The notes under the pieces were generated by a model. It was not told the origin of the DNA and made no database searches. It was given only the letters and a program-made list of their open reading frames with translations. This document shows positions 11,544-17,360 of a stretch of 32,000 nucleotides of DNA, piece by piece. The position numbers were made by a program, and so were the translations under genes. Positions within the stretch are counted from its first letter, which is position 1. Each line of letters starts with the position of its first letter. This DNA is from Candidatus Iainarchaeum sp. (GTDB lineage Archaea > Iainarchaeota > Iainarchaeia > Iainarchaeales > 0-14-0-20-30-16): contig JAQTTP010000002.1 in assembly GCA_028710695.1 (NCBI GenBank), forward strand, positions 30,001-62,000, read 5' to 3'.

Positions 11544-11618
11544 TTAGGCTTACGACCCTCACCTTACCCGTCAGCCTAAAAGTTAGGCTTACATATATTT
11601 ATAAGGTTGTCAGCCTAA
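11544..11618 (+). promoter_or_regulatory. Double inverted-repeat operator spanning the TATA box of the Fic gene
   Basis: TTAGGCTTAC-N16-GTCAGCCTAA occurs at 11544-11579, followed by AAG, then TTAGGCTTAC-N16-GTCAGCCTAA again at 11583-11618. The second spacer is ATATATTTATAAGGTT, a TATA-like box, and the ATG is at 11628. Confidence 0.6.
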
Positions 11619-11627
11619 TATTATATT

Positions 11628-12566
11628 ATGGGTTTAAGATCAAAAAAAGTTTCAGGAAAGGATTATTATTATTTAGATCTTAGCTACAGGCTATTACATA
11701 AAGCAAAAACATACAGCAAATATGTCGGATCTAATAAACCAACTGCACAAAAATTAAAATTGATCGAATCAAATTTTAAAGATGAAATAATAAAAAAATT
11801 GACAAAAACAGATTATGAGTGTAATTTAATTAGTAAAGATGATTTCATCAGAGCCATTTTGTTTAGAGATTTATTTTACAAAAAATATAAGGCACTAACA
11901 CCAACAAAAAGAAAAAAATACGACATAGATAACACAATAATCTTTACTTTAACTACTTTAACCACTGAGGATGTGCAAGTAAACTTAGAAGATGTAATTA
12001 ATGCTTATGAAAAAAACAAAGATCTAAACATTAAAGAACAAATAAGTAAAAACATGCTTAACGCAATAGAAAAACTTAAAGAAAACAAAACAATAACTCT
12101 TGATTACATATTGGGCCTACATGGCTTAATAATGAGTAATTTTGAATCAAAAACACCGGGACTTATAAGAAATAAACAAGTAAAAATACATAAAACAGAC
12201 AAAAATCATCCTTTAGGCGCAGAAATAGCATACAACCCACCGCACTATTCTACAATATTACCAAAACTTAAAGAATTTGTGGATTGGTTAAATAATTCAA
12301 AACTAAATCCTATTGAAAAGTCTGCGTTAGCACATTATAAAATGTATTTGATACATCCATTTTTAGATGGCAACAAAAGAACTTGCAGATTAATATTCAA
12401 CAAAATTCTTCTTAACAATTGTTTTCCACTAATTAACATCTCTCAAGACAAAGACAAATATTTTGACAGATTATTAGAATCAACAGAAAAGCAAGACCCA
12501 AAGTATTTCGTAAATTTTGTAAGAGAGCAATATTTGTTACAAACAAAGAAATTTTTAAACAGATAA
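11628..12566 (+). CDS. Fic/DOC family protein with a Lys-containing (Doc-like) active-site motif
   Basis: HPFLDGNKRTCR matches HxFx(D/E)GN(G/K)RxxR. The conserved upstream TLTTED resembles the (S/T)xxxE(G/N) inhibitory motif. 312 aa. Confidence 0.85.
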   Translation: MGLRSKKVSGKDYYYLDLSYRLLHKAKTYSKYVGSNKPTAQKLKLIESNFKDEIIKKLTKTDYECNLISKDDFIRAILFRDLFYKKYKALTPTKRKKYDIDNTIIFTLTTLTTEDVQVNLEDVINAYEKNKDLNIKEQISKNMLNAIEKLKENKTITLDYILGLHGLIMSNFESKTPGLIRNKQVKIHKTDKNHPLGAEIAYNPPHYSTILPKLKEFVDWLNNSKLNPIEKSALAHYKMYLIHPFLDGNKRTCRLIFNKILLNNCFPLINISQDKDKYFDRLLESTEKQDPKYFVNFVREQYLLQTKKFLNR

Positions 12567-12579
12567 TTTGAGGAAGATC

Positions 12580-13593
12580 ATGATGGAAAAATTAACTTTT
12601 GCTTTTAGGGAATACAGCCCCTTATATTGGGCAATATTAGCAAATAATTCAAAAACTGATTACATTTTCATAACAAAGGGAAAAGATAGTGTTTGCTATT
12701 ATCTTGGCAGCCTAAAAAAGTTCGACAAAGTAAGAAAAAACCTACAACACAAAAAGTTTAGAGAAAAATTAATTCAAGACATAAAAAATAACAATAAATT
12801 ATTACAAAACTACAAACACGCACCTAATCTATCAAAACTAAATTTAAAAGAATTACAAAAGAGTTTCAAAGCAGGAATAGAACTTGCTTTAAAATGGCAA
12901 AAGACTTATCATTTAACAGAAGAAGAATATTGGAAGGGGTTAGAGGATTCTATTTCTGAATCAGAACAGAAAGAATTAACACACTTAAGATTTGAATCAA
13001 AAAAACTAATAAGAAAACATTGGAAACATTTGGTTCACGACATTCTAGAAGAAATTTCAAGAAAAACACAAATAGATTTGGATGATTTCTGGAATTATAC
13101 TTATGAGGAAATATTAAAATTACCAAAAAAGCCAAGCACAAAATCAATAAATTCTAGAAGAAAGGAATGGGGACTAATAAAAACAAAAAATAAAAAAAGA
13201 CTTATGACAAACAAAGAATTGCAAAAATATCAAAAACTAATAGCAAAAGAAACAAAATTAGAAAACAAGGAATTTTCTGGTTTACCTGTACACAAAGGAG
13301 AGGTTATTGGCATTGTTAAAGTAATAAGATCAAGAGATATAAATCAAGACAAGGTTTTTGATCTAAAAAATAAAATTCTTGTAACAGAAATGACCAAACC
13401 AGAGCTTGTTCCATTTTTAGGTGGCTGTTTAGGAATTATTACTGATGAAGGTGGATTACTTTGCCACGCATCTATTGTAGCAAGAGAGTTTAATATTCCA
13501 TGTATTGTTGGCACAAAAATAGCAACAAAAGTCCTAAAGAACAACACAAAAGTCAAGTTAGATGCAAATACTGGAAAGGTTTCAATACTTTAA
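12580..13593 (+). CDS. Protein with a C-terminal PEP-utilizing-enzyme mobile (swivel, phospho-His) domain and a Lys-rich N-terminal region of unknown function
   Basis: GEVIGIVKVI...ILVTEMTKPELVPFLGGCLGIITDEGGLLCHASIVAREFNIPCIVG contains the conserved His-A-x-I-x-AR signature. The ATG lies 13 nt after the Fic stop, preceded by AGGAAG. Confidence 0.7.
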   Translation: MMEKLTFAFREYSPLYWAILANNSKTDYIFITKGKDSVCYYLGSLKKFDKVRKNLQHKKFREKLIQDIKNNNKLLQNYKHAPNLSKLNLKELQKSFKAGIELALKWQKTYHLTEEEYWKGLEDSISESEQKELTHLRFESKKLIRKHWKHLVHDILEEISRKTQIDLDDFWNYTYEEILKLPKKPSTKSINSRRKEWGLIKTKNKKRLMTNKELQKYQKLIAKETKLENKEFSGLPVHKGEVIGIVKVIRSRDINQDKVFDLKNKILVTEMTKPELVPFLGGCLGIITDEGGLLCHASIVAREFNIPCIVGTKIATKVLKNNTKVKLDANTGKVSIL

Positions 13594-13735
13594 CGTTTAG
13601 AAACAGGTTTATTATTATCTCCAAATAGCTTTTTTCTTAAAGTATCTTTAGAAATATAGTCTCCTGCTTTAATTCTTGCCCTTGCTTTTTCTATTGATTT
13701 TACTGCACTCAAGCTTAATTCTTTACACACAAGAA

Positions 13736-14146
13736 TCACTTCTTAAAGAAACCATCAATCATTTTCTTTGCATCATCTAAAGTTTTATACTCTTTAATTA
13801 TAAAATACTTATTCCCGCCAACCATTGCAGAAAGCTTCTTTCCATCTTGGGGTCTATATAAGCAATACACTTTCTTTCCTAAAGACTCACCAATTCCAAG
13901 CTCATAACCAACACCCAAAGATGGTTGAGTTACTTCCGCAACAATAACATCTGCCTCTTTTATCCAGGACATATCTCTATTGTAAATATAATCTTCAGAA
14001 TGTGATTCCCCTTGAGATGAAAGGTTCTCATTTCCTATGTGCTCAGTTAGCACTTTTCCATATTTCCCAAGGTGGTTAATAATCTGCAGGTAGGTATCTT
14101 TATCATCTCTTCCGCCTCTAATTGATCCTGCAAAATATATTTTCAT
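13736..14146 (-). CDS. DNPH1/Rcl-like 2'-deoxynucleoside 5'-phosphate N-hydrolase (nucleoside 2-deoxyribosyltransferase fold)
   Basis: MKIYFAGSIRGGRDD...VLTEHI...ADVIVAEVTQPSLGVGYELG closely follows the DNPH1 signature. The ATG at 14146 is preferred over the GTG at 14155. Confidence 0.8.
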   Translation of the reverse strand: MKIYFAGSIRGGRDDKDTYLQIINHLGKYGKVLTEHIGNENLSSQGESHSEDYIYNRDMSWIKEADVIVAEVTQPSLGVGYELGIGESLGKKVYCLYRPQDGKKLSAMVGGNKYFIIKEYKTLDDAKKMIDGFFKK

Positions 14147-14155
14147 ATTTATCAC

Positions 14156-14629
14156 TTAAATCTCTGCAAATAAAACAACATAGTTCTTCCCATACTTCTT
14201 TGCGCATTTAGGGCAAGTTGTGTAATAGAAATAAATCTTCTTTGCTGTTTTGCCTTTTGCTTTCACATACTCTAACATTTCTTTATACCATTTTCCTGCA
14301 TCCCTATATGGGCCTTCAAATACTCTTGTTAAAAAAGTGCCAGAAATCTTTACATTTTCTATCCCGTTTACTTCTTTTCTTACTGCCAAGTATTGCTCGC
14401 TTTTCCAAGGAGAAACATCCAAGGTAAGAAGTAACCATTCTCTTGGATCTACTGCTGCTTTTGAGGCTTCTACCTTACTTACCATTCTCTTTATTACTGA
14501 ACCAAAATTCAGCGGAATATGGAAAAAGCAAGTTACTTTGTCTTTAACAAAAAGCTTGTCTTTCAATACTACTTCTCTGCCATTAAATGGCTTAGGATTA
14601 AACTTCGGACAACATATATCTTTATTCAT
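14156..14629 (-). CDS. Conserved hypothetical protein with N-terminal CC and C-terminal CPKC cysteine motifs
   Basis: 157 aa, with AAGGGGG upstream of the ATG. The sequence reads MNKDICCPKF...FFHIPLNFG...YYTTCPKCAKKYGKNYVV. The stop abuts the start region of the DNPH1-like gene. Confidence 0.5.
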   Translation of the reverse strand: MNKDICCPKFNPKPFNGREVVLKDKLFVKDKVTCFFHIPLNFGSVIKRMVSKVEASKAAVDPREWLLLTLDVSPWKSEQYLAVRKEVNGIENVKISGTFLTRVFEGPYRDAGKWYKEMLEYVKAKGKTAKKIYFYYTTCPKCAKKYGKNYVVLFAEI

Positions 14630-14640
14630 AAAAAACCCCC

Positions 14641-15759
14641 TTACTTAGGAACATAATCTATTGTTTCTAGAGTTCCCAATTCATCTACCACTTGTTTAAA
14701 CACAATTTCTTTTCCTGCTGTACCATCTGACAAAATAGAGTATATTCCACTTGCACCCACATAATCTTTTACATTTAATAAATAATCATGAATACAATCT
14801 TTATTATCCCCACAATTCTTATATGCAGCATATTCTAAATGTATTGCATCATAAGCAACTCTTGCCAATACTGCCGGATTTTCATTATATTTATCTTTAA
14901 ATTTTTTTTCAAATTCAAACATATACTCTGATTCCGTCATCCCAGGAATTGCAATTACCATTCCAATTGCATTTTCTTTTGCAGTCTTAAATAAATCAGG
15001 ATTTTCCGCTTCTTCATAGGTTATTATTGGTTTATTAATTCCCATACTTTTTAGTTGATTTAACATAGATCCCAAATTGGGGCCCATATGGACAAGTTGT
15101 AAAACATCAGGATTTTTTTCAAGTATCTTTGTAAGTACATCTTTAAAGTCATATTGTTCCAAAGCTGTTTCTTCAAGTACCAATACTTTCCCACCTAAAT
15201 TTTCAAACTCTTTAGCAAAGTTTTTTCCATAGGATTTCCCCATATCAGTGTTATAATGAATTATTCCCACTGTATTTGCATCCCAATAATCTTTTGCAAA
15301 TTTAGCCTGCGCTTTTGCACTATATGCACTTGCAATATTTGGAGAGAAAACATATTCTCCCGAAGTTAGAATCATATCTGAAGCAGTAGAAATCTGCATT
15401 ACAGAAATTTTTTTTGGTTCAGTTACTGCCGAAATTGGAGGCATAGCAATAACACAGAAATTTCCACCTACAAAATCAATCTCATCAATTTCAACTAATT
15501 TTGATATCGCAGTAGTAGCATCTTTAGGATAACAGGCATCTTCATAAATTAATTCTATTTTACTTTTGTTTTCTGGATTTGCATTAATTTCTTCAACTGC
15601 CAAATCCAGCCCTTTCTTTATTTCTTCACCATAGCTTGCCATAGCGCCAGTCAAAGGTAGAGTAATACCTATTTTTACGCCATTATCTGGATTAGAACCC
15701 ACACACCCCGACAAAAGAATCAATAAAACTAGGCTAATAGAGATATATAGCTTAATCAT
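14641..15759 (-). CDS. LivJ-type solute-binding lipoprotein (paralog of 1409-2521)
   Basis: Lipobox LLSGC. KIGITLPLTGAMASYGEEIKKGLDLAVEEIN. GGTGAT precedes the ATG. Confidence 0.8.
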   Translation of the reverse strand: MIKLYISISLVLLILLSGCVGSNPDNGVKIGITLPLTGAMASYGEEIKKGLDLAVEEINANPENKSKIELIYEDACYPKDATTAISKLVEIDEIDFVGGNFCVIAMPPISAVTEPKKISVMQISTASDMILTSGEYVFSPNIASAYSAKAQAKFAKDYWDANTVGIIHYNTDMGKSYGKNFAKEFENLGGKVLVLEETALEQYDFKDVLTKILEKNPDVLQLVHMGPNLGSMLNQLKSMGINKPIITYEEAENPDLFKTAKENAIGMVIAIPGMTESEYMFEFEKKFKDKYNENPAVLARVAYDAIHLEYAAYKNCGDNKDCIHDYLLNVKDYVGASGIYSILSDGTAGKEIVFKQVVDELGTLETIDYVPK

Positions 15760-15789
15760 AATATCACCAACAAAGAATAAGAGTTAGAA

Positions 15790-16074
15790 TTAACTCTTAA
15801 CTCTACAATTTCTTAAGTCTTTCAGTTCTGCAGCATATCTGCCATCAGGCGATGTTCTTAGAACTTTGCCATTATAGATTTCCATATAAGCTTTCTTTCC
15901 ATCTTCAAGCAAGAAATAGAATTTAGTTCCATATTCTTTCATTTCGGCCATAACTTCAGATGTTGAGATTATCTCTCTTGATAGCTTTTTATCTCCAGAT
16001 TCTGGGTTAATTACACCCACTTTCTCCAGTTTATTATCGCTGCTTAAAACAACACAAACAATTTCTTTTTCCAT
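15790..16074 (-). CDS. DUF3892-like small protein
   Basis: 94 aa. The C-terminal KVLRTSPDGRYAAELKDLRNC resembles the DUF3892 signature (xLRTxPDGxxxNNLxxLPxC). Confidence 0.45.
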   Translation of the reverse strand: MEKEIVCVVLSSDNKLEKVGVINPESGDKKLSREIISTSEVMAEMKEYGTKFYFLLEDGKKAYMEIYNGKVLRTSPDGRYAAELKDLRNCRVKS

Positions 16075-16177
16075 AGTTCCACTCCCCTTAACTCTTTGAA
16101 ATATAATTAGTATTTGTTATTCTATAGGCTTTTTGAGAATTTATTCTTTTCTATCGGGGGGCAGAGTAGAAAACTTC

Positions 16178-16213
16178 GCAGGTAGGGACAAAGACTAAAC
16201 CGCAGAGGTTAGG
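16178..16213 (+). repeat. Copy A of a purine-rich ~35-bp repeat
   Basis: GCAGGTAGGGACAAAGACTAAACCGCAGAGGTTAGG. Related copies lie at 17317 and 17680. It contains GCAGRG(G)TAG sub-repeats at 16161, 16178 and 16202. Confidence 0.6.
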
Positions 16214-16229
16214 AGAAAAGGGGGAAAAA

Positions 16230-17168
16230 TCATTTTTCCAAAAAAGTCTTAATTTGTTTAAAGTATTGTTCTTTTGAGAATTTTACAAAAAATTCTGGGT
16301 CTTGTTTTTCCGTTGATTTAATAAGACTATCAAAATATTGGCTTCTTTTATCTGAGATATTCATTAATGGAAACCCACAATCCAGCAGTATTTTGTTAAA
16401 AATCAGTCTACAAGTCCTTTTATTACCATCTAAAAAAGGGTGTATTAAATACAACTTGTAATGTGCCAAAACAGATTTTTCTAGAGGATTAAGTTTACTT
16501 CCCCTAACCCAAGCAACAAAATCATCAAGCAACTTAGTTATTTGTTCAGGTTTTGGTGGCTTATAACTTATTTCAATTCCAAGAGGATTTTTTTCATCCC
16601 TTTTGTGAATATATACATCTTTTGTTCTAATTAAACCGGGCGTTTTATTTTCAAATTCTTTCATAGTCAAGGAGTGTAGATCCAATAAATATTTTTTTGT
16701 AAACTCTTGTTTTTTCTTAATTTGCTCAACAGCATCAATCATGTTCTTACTAATCTTTTCTTTAGCGGTTAAACCATAATCTTGTTCATAAGCCCTAGCA
16801 ACATCATCCAAACTAACATCAACATCTTCAGTAGTTAAAGTTGTCAAGGTAAATAAAATTGTTGAGTCAATCTCATATTTTTTTCTCTTTGTTGGACTTA
16901 ATGCCTTGAATTTTTTGTTAAATGCATCTCTAAACAAAAAAGTTCTAATAACATCATCTTTACTTATTAAATTACAACCATATTTTTTACCAGATATTTT
17001 TTCTATTATTTTATCCTTAAAGTCTTCTTCCAGTTCCTTTATCTTTTTATTAGTTGGTTTTTTTAGACCAAGGTATTTGGCAAAGCTTTGCGATTTTGTA
17101 AGAACACGGTAACTTAAATTCAAATAGTAGTATTTTTTTCCAGCCCTAGTTTTTACTTTTAAACCCAT
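16230..17168 (-). CDS. Fic/DOC family protein (inverted paralog of 11628-12566)
   Basis: MGLKVKTRAGKKYYYLNLSYR..., with an identical HPFLDGNKRTCRLIFNKILL and FTLTTLTTEDV. 312 aa from the ATG at 17168. The ORF-track extension to 17216 reads through the operator and is rejected. Confidence 0.85.
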   Translation of the reverse strand: MGLKVKTRAGKKYYYLNLSYRVLTKSQSFAKYLGLKKPTNKKIKELEEDFKDKIIEKISGKKYGCNLISKDDVIRTFLFRDAFNKKFKALSPTKRKKYEIDSTILFTLTTLTTEDVDVSLDDVARAYEQDYGLTAKEKISKNMIDAVEQIKKKQEFTKKYLLDLHSLTMKEFENKTPGLIRTKDVYIHKRDEKNPLGIEISYKPPKPEQITKLLDDFVAWVRGSKLNPLEKSVLAHYKLYLIHPFLDGNKRTCRLIFNKILLDCGFPLMNISDKRSQYFDSLIKSTEKQDPEFFVKFSKEQYFKQIKTFLEK

Positions 17169-17178
17169 AATTATTATA

Positions 17179-17256
17179 TTGGTCCGACAAAAATATAAAT
17201 ATATGTCTGACCACACGTGTGGTCTGACAAATCACACCGCCATTGTTTGACCACAC
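17179..17256 (-). promoter_or_regulatory. Double inverted-repeat operator spanning the TATA box of the second Fic gene
   Basis: Read in the gene's direction: GTGTGGTCAAAC-N16-GTCAGACCACAC|GTGTGGTCAGAC-N16(ATATATTTATATTTTT)-GTCGGACCAA. The core GACCACACGTGTGGTC (17209-17224) is a perfect 16-bp palindrome. Confidence 0.6.
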
Positions 17257-17316: not shown

Positions 17317-17350
17317 GCAGGTAGGGGAAAAAGACTAAATCGCGGGGGTC
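17317..17350 (+). repeat. Copy B of the purine-rich repeat
   Basis: GCAGGTAGGGGAAAAAGACTAAATCGCGGGGGTC. It matches copy A over about the first 26 nt, apart from a 1-nt indel and about 2 substitutions. Confidence 0.6.
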
Positions 17351-17360
17351 ATGCTTATTT

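Follow-up and report, generated by a model that had tools for sequence, protein, structure and literature searches.

Covarying promoter dyads and N-terminal domains in an archaeal Fic family suggest self-repressing Fic genes

How is the gene of a Fic enzyme controlled in a small archaeon, and which protein reads the repeats that stand in its promoter? This question is raised by the window analysed here, a stretch of 32,000 nt from Candidatus Iainarchaeum sp. (GenBank assembly GCA_028710695.1, contig JAQTTP010000002.1, positions 30,001 to 62,000 of the forward strand), in which two paralogous genes, called Fic1 and Fic2, are each preceded by a pair of inverted repeats, or dyads. An earlier note on this DNA took the arrangement for autoregulation specific to each paralog. 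The explanation that we consider best, and hold to be probable, is autorepression of each gene by the Fic protein's own N-terminal domain. We present the architecture of the promoters, its conservation among relatives and its covariation with the protein, and weigh other explanations where the evidence bears on them.

Each Fic promoter carries two dyads with a 16-nt gap

The dyads and the genes behind them are the following:

11544..11579, plus strand: Fic1 distal dyad, TTAGGCTTAC-N16-GTCAGCCTAA, with a GC-rich spacer that holds no TATA box
11583..11618, plus strand: Fic1 proximal dyad, TTAGGCTTAC-N16-GTCAGCCTAA, which encloses the TATA box, with 9 nt between its right arm and the ATG
11628..12566, plus strand: Fic1 gene, 312 amino acids; its Fic core resembles FICD and SoFic (putative class II) and has the motif HPFLDGNKRTCR, and the sequence TLTTED is similar to the motif of an inhibitory helix
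17217..17256, minus strand: Fic2 distal dyad, GTGTGGTCAAAC-N16-GTCAGACCACAC, adjoining the proximal dyad
17177..17216, minus strand: Fic2 proximal dyad, GTGTGGTCAGAC-N16-GTCGGACCAATA, which encloses the TATA box
16230..17168, minus strand: Fic2 gene, 312 amino acids, with the same domain layout as Fic1; its N-terminal domain is encoded at 16983-17168

In front of Fic1, the left arm TTAGGCTTAC lies at 11544-11553 and again at 11583-11592, and the right arm GTCAGCCTAA at 11570-11579 and 11609-11618. Both gaps measure exactly 16 nt, three nucleotides (aag) separate the two dyads, and 9 nt remain to the ATG at 11628. The arms of Fic2, read on the minus strand, are GTGTGGTCAAAC (17256-17245), GTCAGACCACAC (17228-17217), GTGTGGTCAGAC (17216-17205) and GTCGGACCAATA (17188-17177); here too both gaps are of 16 nt, and 8 nt lie between the last arm and the ATG at 17168, which is the true start of the gene, rather than the GTG upstream at 17216. 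The junction of the two Fic2 dyads forms a perfect 16-bp palindrome, GACCACACGTGTGGTC, at 17209-17224. In a 10-mer frame the arm pairs are imperfect inverted repeats, with 9 of 10 positions matching in Fic1 and 8 of 10 in Fic2, and the mismatch in Fic1 is identical in both dyads. The proximal spacer opens with ATATATTTATA in both Fic1 and Fic2.

When each dyad pattern was searched for in the window with up to 3 mismatches, only these sites were found, the expected number being 0.00 (100 shuffles). Exact half-sites are essentially confined to the two Fic promoters in the whole 0.9-Mb genome, and further operator copies elsewhere in the genome, which would make up a regulon, were not found above chance. 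Of 683 starts of long open reading frames (ORFs), only 6 have upstream arms of this geometry that match as an inverted repeat in 8 or more of 10 positions; two of these belong to the Fic genes and the remainder are AT-rich. The two-dyad N16 geometry that the earlier note had seen upstream of both genes is therefore real and lies where it had been placed, far above chance. Its other descriptions of the promoters, namely half-sites that differ between Fic1 and Fic2, the perfect 16-bp palindrome and a common TATA-containing spacer, agree with what we found.

The proximal dyad surrounds the TATA box

11598..11603, plus strand: TATA box of Fic1, TTTATA, at -30 to -25 from the ATG
17199-17194, minus strand: TATA box of Fic2, TTTATA, at -31 to -26 from the ATG

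The source genome of the window (27 contigs, about 30% G+C) encodes a TATA-binding protein (TBP) and gave no match to sigma-70 region 2, and thus it is that of a small-genome archaeon; its nearest public relatives are labelled Iainarchaeota (Diapherotrites), Aenigmatarchaeota, Micrarchaeota and Woesearchaeota. Both TATA boxes are contained in the shared ATATATTTATA, and throughout the genome the pattern TTTA[AT]A shows a sharp peak at -30 to -27 before ORF starts (681 long ORFs). The centre of an archaeal TATA box lies about 26-27 nt upstream of the transcription start site. Given this distance, the position of the boxes indicates that the transcripts begin at or next to the ATG. This implies that Fic1 and Fic2 transcripts would be leaderless, which appears to be the usual geometry in this genome. 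With a leaderless start, the left arm of the proximal dyad would overlap the side of the TATA box that carries the B recognition element (BRE), and the right arm would lie between the TATA box and the start.

The double-dyad arrangement is conserved among relatives and its half-sites vary

Members of the family were found in 81 of 196 genomes of the window's own order. With further loci taken from genome and metagenome scans, two other phyla and four exact look-ups, about 100 loci were examined overall, and 63 unique loci with at least 45% identity formed the orthologous set. Aligning the upstream regions of orthologs, a check proposed in the earlier note, brought out N16 dyads in essentially all 63 loci, co-varying with the protein; the architecture is kept throughout this Fic family of DPANN archaea. 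The proximal inverted repeat matches at 10 of 10 positions in 46 of these loci, at 9 of 10 in 12 and at 8 of 10 in 5.

Both dyads were called automatically in 57 of the 63 loci, and in these the gap equals 16 nt in 56 of 57 proximal and 55 of 57 distal dyads. The caller missed six loci: L029-L032, which when read by eye have N15 gaps and abutting dyads, L026, which was missed at the thresholds used, and L158, in which no distal dyad was recognised. The distance from the end of the right arm to the start codon is 6-10 nt (mode 7), and that between the dyads varies from 1 to 21 nt (57 loci).

The half-sites fall into 13 consensus variants among the orthologous loci. Positions 1-5 (TTAGG) and 9 (A) are nearly fixed and positions 6, 7, 8 and 10 are variable; Fic2 is the sole member that deviates at positions 1, 3 and 5. 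Identity among half-sites is 94% for the four of a single locus and 75.5% between loci, whereas distal and proximal spacers show 46% identity within a locus and 44% between loci. As the half-sites are alike and the spacers are not, the agreement must be maintained on the arms specifically and not by copying of the whole unit. This argues for selection on the half-sites rather than homogenisation.

More distant members also carry repeats on both sides of the TATA box, specific to each locus and in other forms. A subfamily with 35-38% identity has two dyads, with half-site types TTATCACCAC, TTATAACTAC and TTAACGCCAC, and one with 26-32% identity has two direct half-sites and one inverted half-site across the TATA box (GTATTACTCA ... 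TGAGTAATAC). The genome of the window also holds a third paralog (G000:C3:171901-172764; L003/L206), 28% identical to Fic1, with ATACCACACA-N30-TGTGTGGTAT around its TATA box. Its operator shares the 7-mer GTGTGGT/ACCACAC with that of Fic2, but the 7-mer points the other way with respect to the centre of the dyad. In genomes with at least two family members the half-sites always differ. Two members of one subfamily occur together in two genomes, namely this one and G100 (TTAACGCCAC vs TTATCACCAC).

According to the earlier note, the promoter was duplicated along with the gene and the recognition sequence then diverged at a kept spacing. Fixed spacing and variable half-sites are indeed what the family displays, but a recent duplication is not supported. 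We rejected a recent local inverted duplication as the origin of Fic1 and Fic2, whose cores are only 64% identical, while a metagenomic protein is 80% identical to Fic1. In this metagenomic relative the half-site differs (TTAGGCGGAC/GTCCGCCTAA in both dyads) and the spacer is nearly identical.

Changes of operator type go with the N-terminal domain of Fic

No conserved neighbouring regulator or antitoxin was found at the orthologous loci, where even the most frequent family of neighbours is present in only 5 of 63; the sole protein that is always present is the Fic protein itself. On a tree built from the Fic cores only, operator type and N-terminal type are scattered together. The loci L012 and L015, for example, have cores that are 88% identical, beta domains that are 47% identical, and different half-sites, whereas L012 and L018 have a common half-site, and the identity is 75% for their beta domains and 72% for their cores. 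It appears from these comparisons that operator type follows the N-terminal domain and not the Fic core.

The correspondence can be narrowed to single positions. Arginine at residue 21 goes with C at half-site position 10 in 24 loci and phenylalanine with T in 36, with 2 exceptions (60 of 62 loci follow the rule). Placed on the core tree, residue 21 and base 10 undergo 12 changes, and all 6 independent pairs on supported branches are concordant (p = 0.03). The rule also held in four loci that were fetched later and stood outside the set from which it had been made. In a scan of 312 protein columns the top column for bases 6, 7, 8 and 10 was always within residues 1-36: the best columns are residues 16 and 4 for base 6, residues 28 and 17 for base 7, and residue 21 for bases 8 and 10; for base 10 its score is 0.90, and the second-best column reaches 0.27. 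Where base 6 is C, residue 17 is Asp or Glu, and where it is T, the residue is Phe; the 4-residue spacing of residues 17 and 21 matches the 4-bp spacing of bases 6 and 10. An arginine paired with G:C, an acidic residue 17 (Asp or Glu) with C6 and a phenylalanine with T make chemical sense.

It might be supposed that separate trans-acting regulators bind the dyads and that the N-terminal domain of Fic has another role. On one hand, the N-terminal fold matches no DNA-binding class, and small archaeal genomes do carry unclassified regulators. On the other hand, a regulator of its own would be required for every one of the three half-sites in one 0.9-Mb genome and of the at least 13 across the orthologs. 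The loci have no linked gene, and the half-sites are essentially absent from the rest of the genome. Moreover, this idea does not account for residue 21 of Fic predicting base 10, nor for a domain that accompanies promoter repeats in a non-Fic protein too, as described below. We consider separate regulators very improbable. The Fic protein is favoured as the reader because the half-sites are unique to these promoters and there is no conserved neighbour gene. The suggestion of the earlier note that the repressor could be the Fic protein, acting through an N-terminal region, has thus become, on comparative evidence, the best-supported reading: the variation tracks the N-terminal domain, and no other protein is conserved at the loci.

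A basic beta domain precedes the Fic core

11628..11813, plus strand: N-terminal domain of Fic1, residues 1-62; the proposed reader of the operator, on the evidence of AlphaFold models, covariation and charge

In the AlphaFold model of the protein, with a predicted local distance difference test score (pLDDT) of 94.9, beta strands at residues 2-8, 11-21 and 26-34 and a long helix at 40-59 stand ahead of a FICD-like core; the N-terminal 65 amino acids modelled in isolation reach a pLDDT of 86. Residues 1-38 carry a net charge of +7 in Fic1, the family mean being +7.9. Residues 13, 15, 17, 19 and 21 presumably make up the exposed face of strand 2, since they alternate with the hydrophobic residues 14, 16, 18 and 20. 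The AP2/ERF domain and the arm-binding domains of lambda and Tn916 integrases have the same beta-beta-beta-alpha order, and in both cases side chains of the sheet would recognise DNA in the major groove; we treat this resemblance as a lead only. None of them was among the top 50 Foldseek matches of the domain, and membership in these classes is unsupported.

The remainder of the protein is a Fic core. Pfam family PF02661 matches with 67.5 bits in Fic1 and 68.6 bits in Fic2 (cut-off 24), and Foldseek matches the core fold to FICD with E = 1e-11. The active-site motif of Fic proteins is HPFx[D/E]GN[G/K]R (PMC2686095). Here it is present as HPFLDGNKRTCR, and H243, F245, D247, G248, N249, K250, R251 and R254 are invariant in 120 homologues. 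All 120 closest homologues have HPFLDGNKRxCR, with Lys at the place where AMPylating Fic proteins carry a second Gly. Doc, a kinase, has the same Lys substitution in its Fic motif. By analogy, the Lys of GNKR may indicate kinase rather than AMP-transferase chemistry. The TLTTED sequence corresponds to T110-L-T-T-E114-D; T110 and E114 are invariant, and Asp stands where the class-II pattern (S/T)xxxE(G/N) expects G or N. With the putative inhibitory Glu and the catalytic motif both invariant, the Fic enzyme appears to be under selection.

Two closer assignments were considered and rejected. The PADLOC SoFic model gives E = 2e-29, covering only model positions 68-263 of 361, and the protein is not a SoFic equivalog, as NCBIfam gives 43.7 bits against a cut-off of 550 and the match is not full-length. 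Neither does it belong to the Doc subfamily (TIGR01550, 16.9 bits against a cut-off of 38.65), despite the Lys in its motif. CccR of Yersinia pseudotuberculosis is a class-II Fic toxin and at the same time a transcription factor with a C-terminal helix-turn-helix (HTH) domain (PMC9755527); in the protein studied here nothing follows the Fic core, no match to an HTH model was obtained, and the extra domain is N-terminal and built of beta strands.

The N-terminal domain also accompanies promoter repeats outside the Fic family

A search of 1.84 billion representative proteins with a profile of the N-terminal domain returned 56 matches. Besides Fic, the domain is fused to thioredoxin-like [2Fe-2S] proteins similar to NuoE/HydC, and in Woese- and Nanoarchaeota these fusions stand first in NuoF-[FeFe]-hydrogenase operons. 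Within one order the fusion occurs in 12 genomes, and about 49 carry a NuoE-like protein that lacks the domain. We compared the upstream regions of the 12 fusions and of three exact look-ups (one of which duplicates a hit of the order) with those of 17 domain-less genes.

In fusions of the type 'MPYL(K/R)...YYYLFHTVR' the motif GTGGTA(A/G)TTAA lies at -19/-20 in 8 of 8 cases, between the TATA box (-28) and the ATG, and two to three direct copies occur further upstream in 7 of the 8. The motif is found in 0 of the 17 domain-less NuoE-like genes of the same order. As the 'MPYL' fusions have it and the domain-less genes do not, the presence of the domain predicts repeats flanking the promoter in a protein that is otherwise unlike Fic. 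Other NuoE-like fusions, whose N-termini are more divergent, show neither GTGGTARTTAA nor clear promoter repeats. The GTGGT core of the 7-mer shared by Fic2 and the third paralog recurs in the repeats of the NuoE fusions too.

Each Fic gene may be a self-repressing unit

In the mechanism that we propose, each Fic gene would be a self-contained unit that represses itself. The Fic protein would bind each dyad, probably as a dimer, so that two N-terminal domains contact the two 10-bp arms, which are spaced 26 bp (about 88 Å) from centre to centre. An occupied proximal dyad would exclude TBP and transcription factor B (TFB), or RNA polymerase, and the result would be negative feedback on an enzyme that is probably harmful when over-produced. 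The distal dyad would serve as a second, independently spaced site. Specificity would come from one face of the beta sheet, with residue 21 reading base 10 and residues 16/17, 4 and 28 reading bases 6-7. The diversified specificity would keep co-resident members, namely Fic1 (TTAGGCTTAC), Fic2 (GTGGTCAGAC) and the third paralog (ATACCACACA), from regulating one another.

Several points speak against this mechanism. At a spacing of 26 bp the arms lie on opposite faces of the DNA, and a clamp-like or bent complex would be needed. The operator lies less than 150 bp from the codons of the domain, and the covariation could partly reflect a recombining 5' module inherited together. On a tree of the N-terminal module, which is short and poorly supported, there are about 10 joint changes, with one pair on a supported branch. 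Furthermore, Foldseek found nothing significant for the N-terminal fold in PDB or BFVD (best E of 0.78 and 0.05, respectively), and the N-terminal profile had no match in Pfam, NCBIfam or PDB sequences. What was observed is the promoter architecture and its conservation, the covariation with the protein, and the recurrence of the domain as a module; that the domain binds DNA is something that we infer, as the fold has no recognised relative, and the same goes for a dimeric stoichiometry and for the sign of the regulation.

A different outcome of the same binding has to be considered as well. The N-terminal domain might bind the dyads in order to tether the Fic enzyme or switch it allosterically, or to serve activation or a bistable switch; in the tethering variant, the enzyme would be placed beside TBP, TFB, RNA polymerase or a topoisomerase that Fic modifies. 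Such a role shares all the binding evidence of autorepression, and it would agree with the invariance of the Fic motif and of the putative inhibitory Glu, by which the enzyme appears to be under selection. The domain also heads metabolic operons, in the NuoE-like fusions, which makes a role as sensor or regulator plausible. Archaeal activators often bind upstream of the core promoter, and this is where the distal dyads lie. However, one arm is always found between the TATA box and the start, which is the position of a repressor for archaeal regulators. In addition, the sole characterised analogue, CccR, is a repressor, and its regulatory and toxic activities are independent (PMC9755527). We therefore regard tethering or activation as unlikely, and autorepression as the better account.

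A broader proposal goes beyond single genes, and we make it only tentatively. The N-terminal domain could be a previously unrecognised DPANN DNA-binding fold that inserts a strand into the major groove and follows a code in which residue 21 as Arg selects G:C and as Phe selects T, and residue 17 as Asp or Glu selects C and as Phe selects T. This code would have been re-tuned into orthogonal repressor-operator pairs, and domain and operator would have moved as a unit between Fic toxins and NuoE/hydrogenase operons and been swapped between Fic cores.

Gene arrangement and signs of exchange at the Fic loci

Fic1 and Fic2 are 61% identical overall and convergent. The earlier note had the two genes facing each other across about 3.7 kb of unrelated cargo, and 3,663 nt of unrelated genes do lie between them, coding for a phosphoenolpyruvate (PEP)-utiliser swivel-domain protein, a nucleoside deoxyribosyltransferase-like protein, a 'Bact_hydrolase', a periplasmic binding protein and a DUF3892-like protein. 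The first of these, a 341-amino-acid protein at 12568-13593, has the PEP-utiliser mobile (phospho-histidine swivel) domain alone, at its C-terminus. Its gene begins 1 nt past the end of Fic1 and seems to be transcribed together with it; at other Fic loci this neighbour is not conserved. Rfam and tRNA scans of the window gave no matches.

Fic2 and its promoter are enclosed by a direct repeat:

16178..16213, plus strand: left copy of the direct repeat of about 35 bp, which together with the right copy encloses the Fic2 gene and promoter
17318..17353, plus strand: right copy of the direct repeat of about 35 bp, closing the Fic2 cassette

The two copies (GCAGGTAGGGACAAAGACTAAACCGCAGAGGT...) are 1,140 bp apart and are the only 2 in the whole genome. 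They suggest that Fic2 may have arrived or moved as a cassette.

Signs of exchange are seen at other loci. Different Fic subfamilies replace each other at one chromosomal site (L018/L112; L101/L012). L018, which is orthologous, and L112, of the 35-38% subfamily, have the upstream gene in common and remain homologous up to and including the first TTTTTATCACCACC half-site, beyond which they diverge. L101 retains one and a half dyads of the TTAGGCATAC type upstream of its own TTATCACCAC dyads. From these patterns it follows that the junctions of replacement lie inside the operator region. Apparent tRNA gene ends (for instance ...GGTTCAAATCCC..., read by eye in the upstream strings) are directly beside many members, being found upstream of L013, L019, L021, L022, L024, L025, L099, L105, L107, L118, L120, L130 and L132, and such sites would fit insertion hot-spots. 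The flanks of L167, L168, L140 and L038 contain AbiEii, AAA_14 ATPases, a PemK/MazF-like and AbrB-like pair and a GIY-YIG protein, which fits variable defence or toxin islands.

Could the repeats themselves be sites of recombination or cassette exchange, or cruciform or hairpin elements, that travel with a mobile Fic cassette? The replacement of subfamilies at one spot with junctions inside the operator region, the many loci that abut apparent tRNA genes and the direct repeats of about 35 bp around Fic2 would all suit this idea. Still, in about 100 loci the repeats keep their distance from TATA box and start codon to within a few nucleotides, they lie upstream of the inferred transcript, and no recombinase is linked to them. 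The outer TTAGG is conserved as a sequence and not merely as complementarity. A hairpin would not call for a common sequence in the two dyads of a locus, such as is seen here, and the repeats of the third subfamily and of the NuoE fusions are direct ones, unable to pair. On the shared dyad sequence, the conserved TTAGG and the direct repeats of related subfamilies we rejected an RNA hairpin or cruciform; the explanation as a whole, recombination sites included, is in our estimate the least probable of those considered.

Comparison with known systems

The closest parallel to a Fic protein that represses its own gene is CccR. The DNA-binding helices of the CccR dimer are 70 Å apart, and the protein represses its own gene, protecting AGATAATCAT-N26-ATGATAATCT in the -35/-10 region of that gene (PMC9755527). 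Both CccR and the proteins described here combine an auto-inhibited class-II Fic core and a DNA-binding domain (each of them putative in our case) in one polypeptide. In both cases the gene's core promoter is overlapped by 10-bp inverted repeats whose spacer is unusually long, here as 10-N16-10 around the TATA box, and twice. Negative autoregulation by a dimer would be common to the two; binding is proven for CccR and proposed for the archaeal proteins. In contrast, CccR is bacterial, with a -35/-10 promoter, a C-terminal HTH and an N26 spacer, whereas we deal with a DPANN archaeon, a TATA promoter, an N-terminal beta sheet plus helix and N16. Two dyads per promoter and a specificity diversified into many variants also set the archaeal family apart.

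SoFic and FICD (PADLOC SoFic; PDB 3EQX, 6I7G) share with our proteins the core fold and motif, and an inhibitory Glu, putative in our case, that is N-terminal of the core. Unlike them, the archaeal proteins lack the C-terminal winged-helix of SoFic and the TPR of FICD, their motif reads GNKR as in Doc, and the N-terminal beta domain is unique to this Fic family.

Type II toxin-antitoxin operons and heteroimmune phage repressors resemble the proposed system in two respects. Palindromic operators in the gene's own promoter would provide negative feedback on a potentially toxic enzyme, and the specificities of operator and binder diversify, insulating co-resident copies. A type II toxin-antitoxin module was nevertheless rejected as an assignment, as no partner gene is conserved at the loci: there is no antitoxin gene (no neighbour family exceeds 5 of 63 loci). 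Further differences are the archaeal promoter and the combination of the putative inhibitory helix, the putative DNA-binding domain and the toxin in one chain.

Significance

Our literature searches found no paper that links Fic with regulation in DPANN archaea and nothing relevant on a beta-sheet archaeal autoregulator. DPANN archaea have tiny genomes and, to our knowledge, almost no characterised transcription factors. For these organisms the Fic family would offer a widespread regulator-operator system for which the binding domain, the sites and a residue-base rule are all predicted. A Fic toxin that acts as its own transcription factor, so far represented only by CccR in one bacterium, would be extended to archaea and to a different DNA-binding fold. 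Our results suggest that single-chain, self-repressing Fic units may be a general way to carry a dangerous enzyme without an antitoxin gene. The many operator variants with their matching protein variants would make up a natural data set on the evolution of repressor specificity and the insulation of paralogs from each other, and they are a possible source of orthogonal parts for archaeal genetics.

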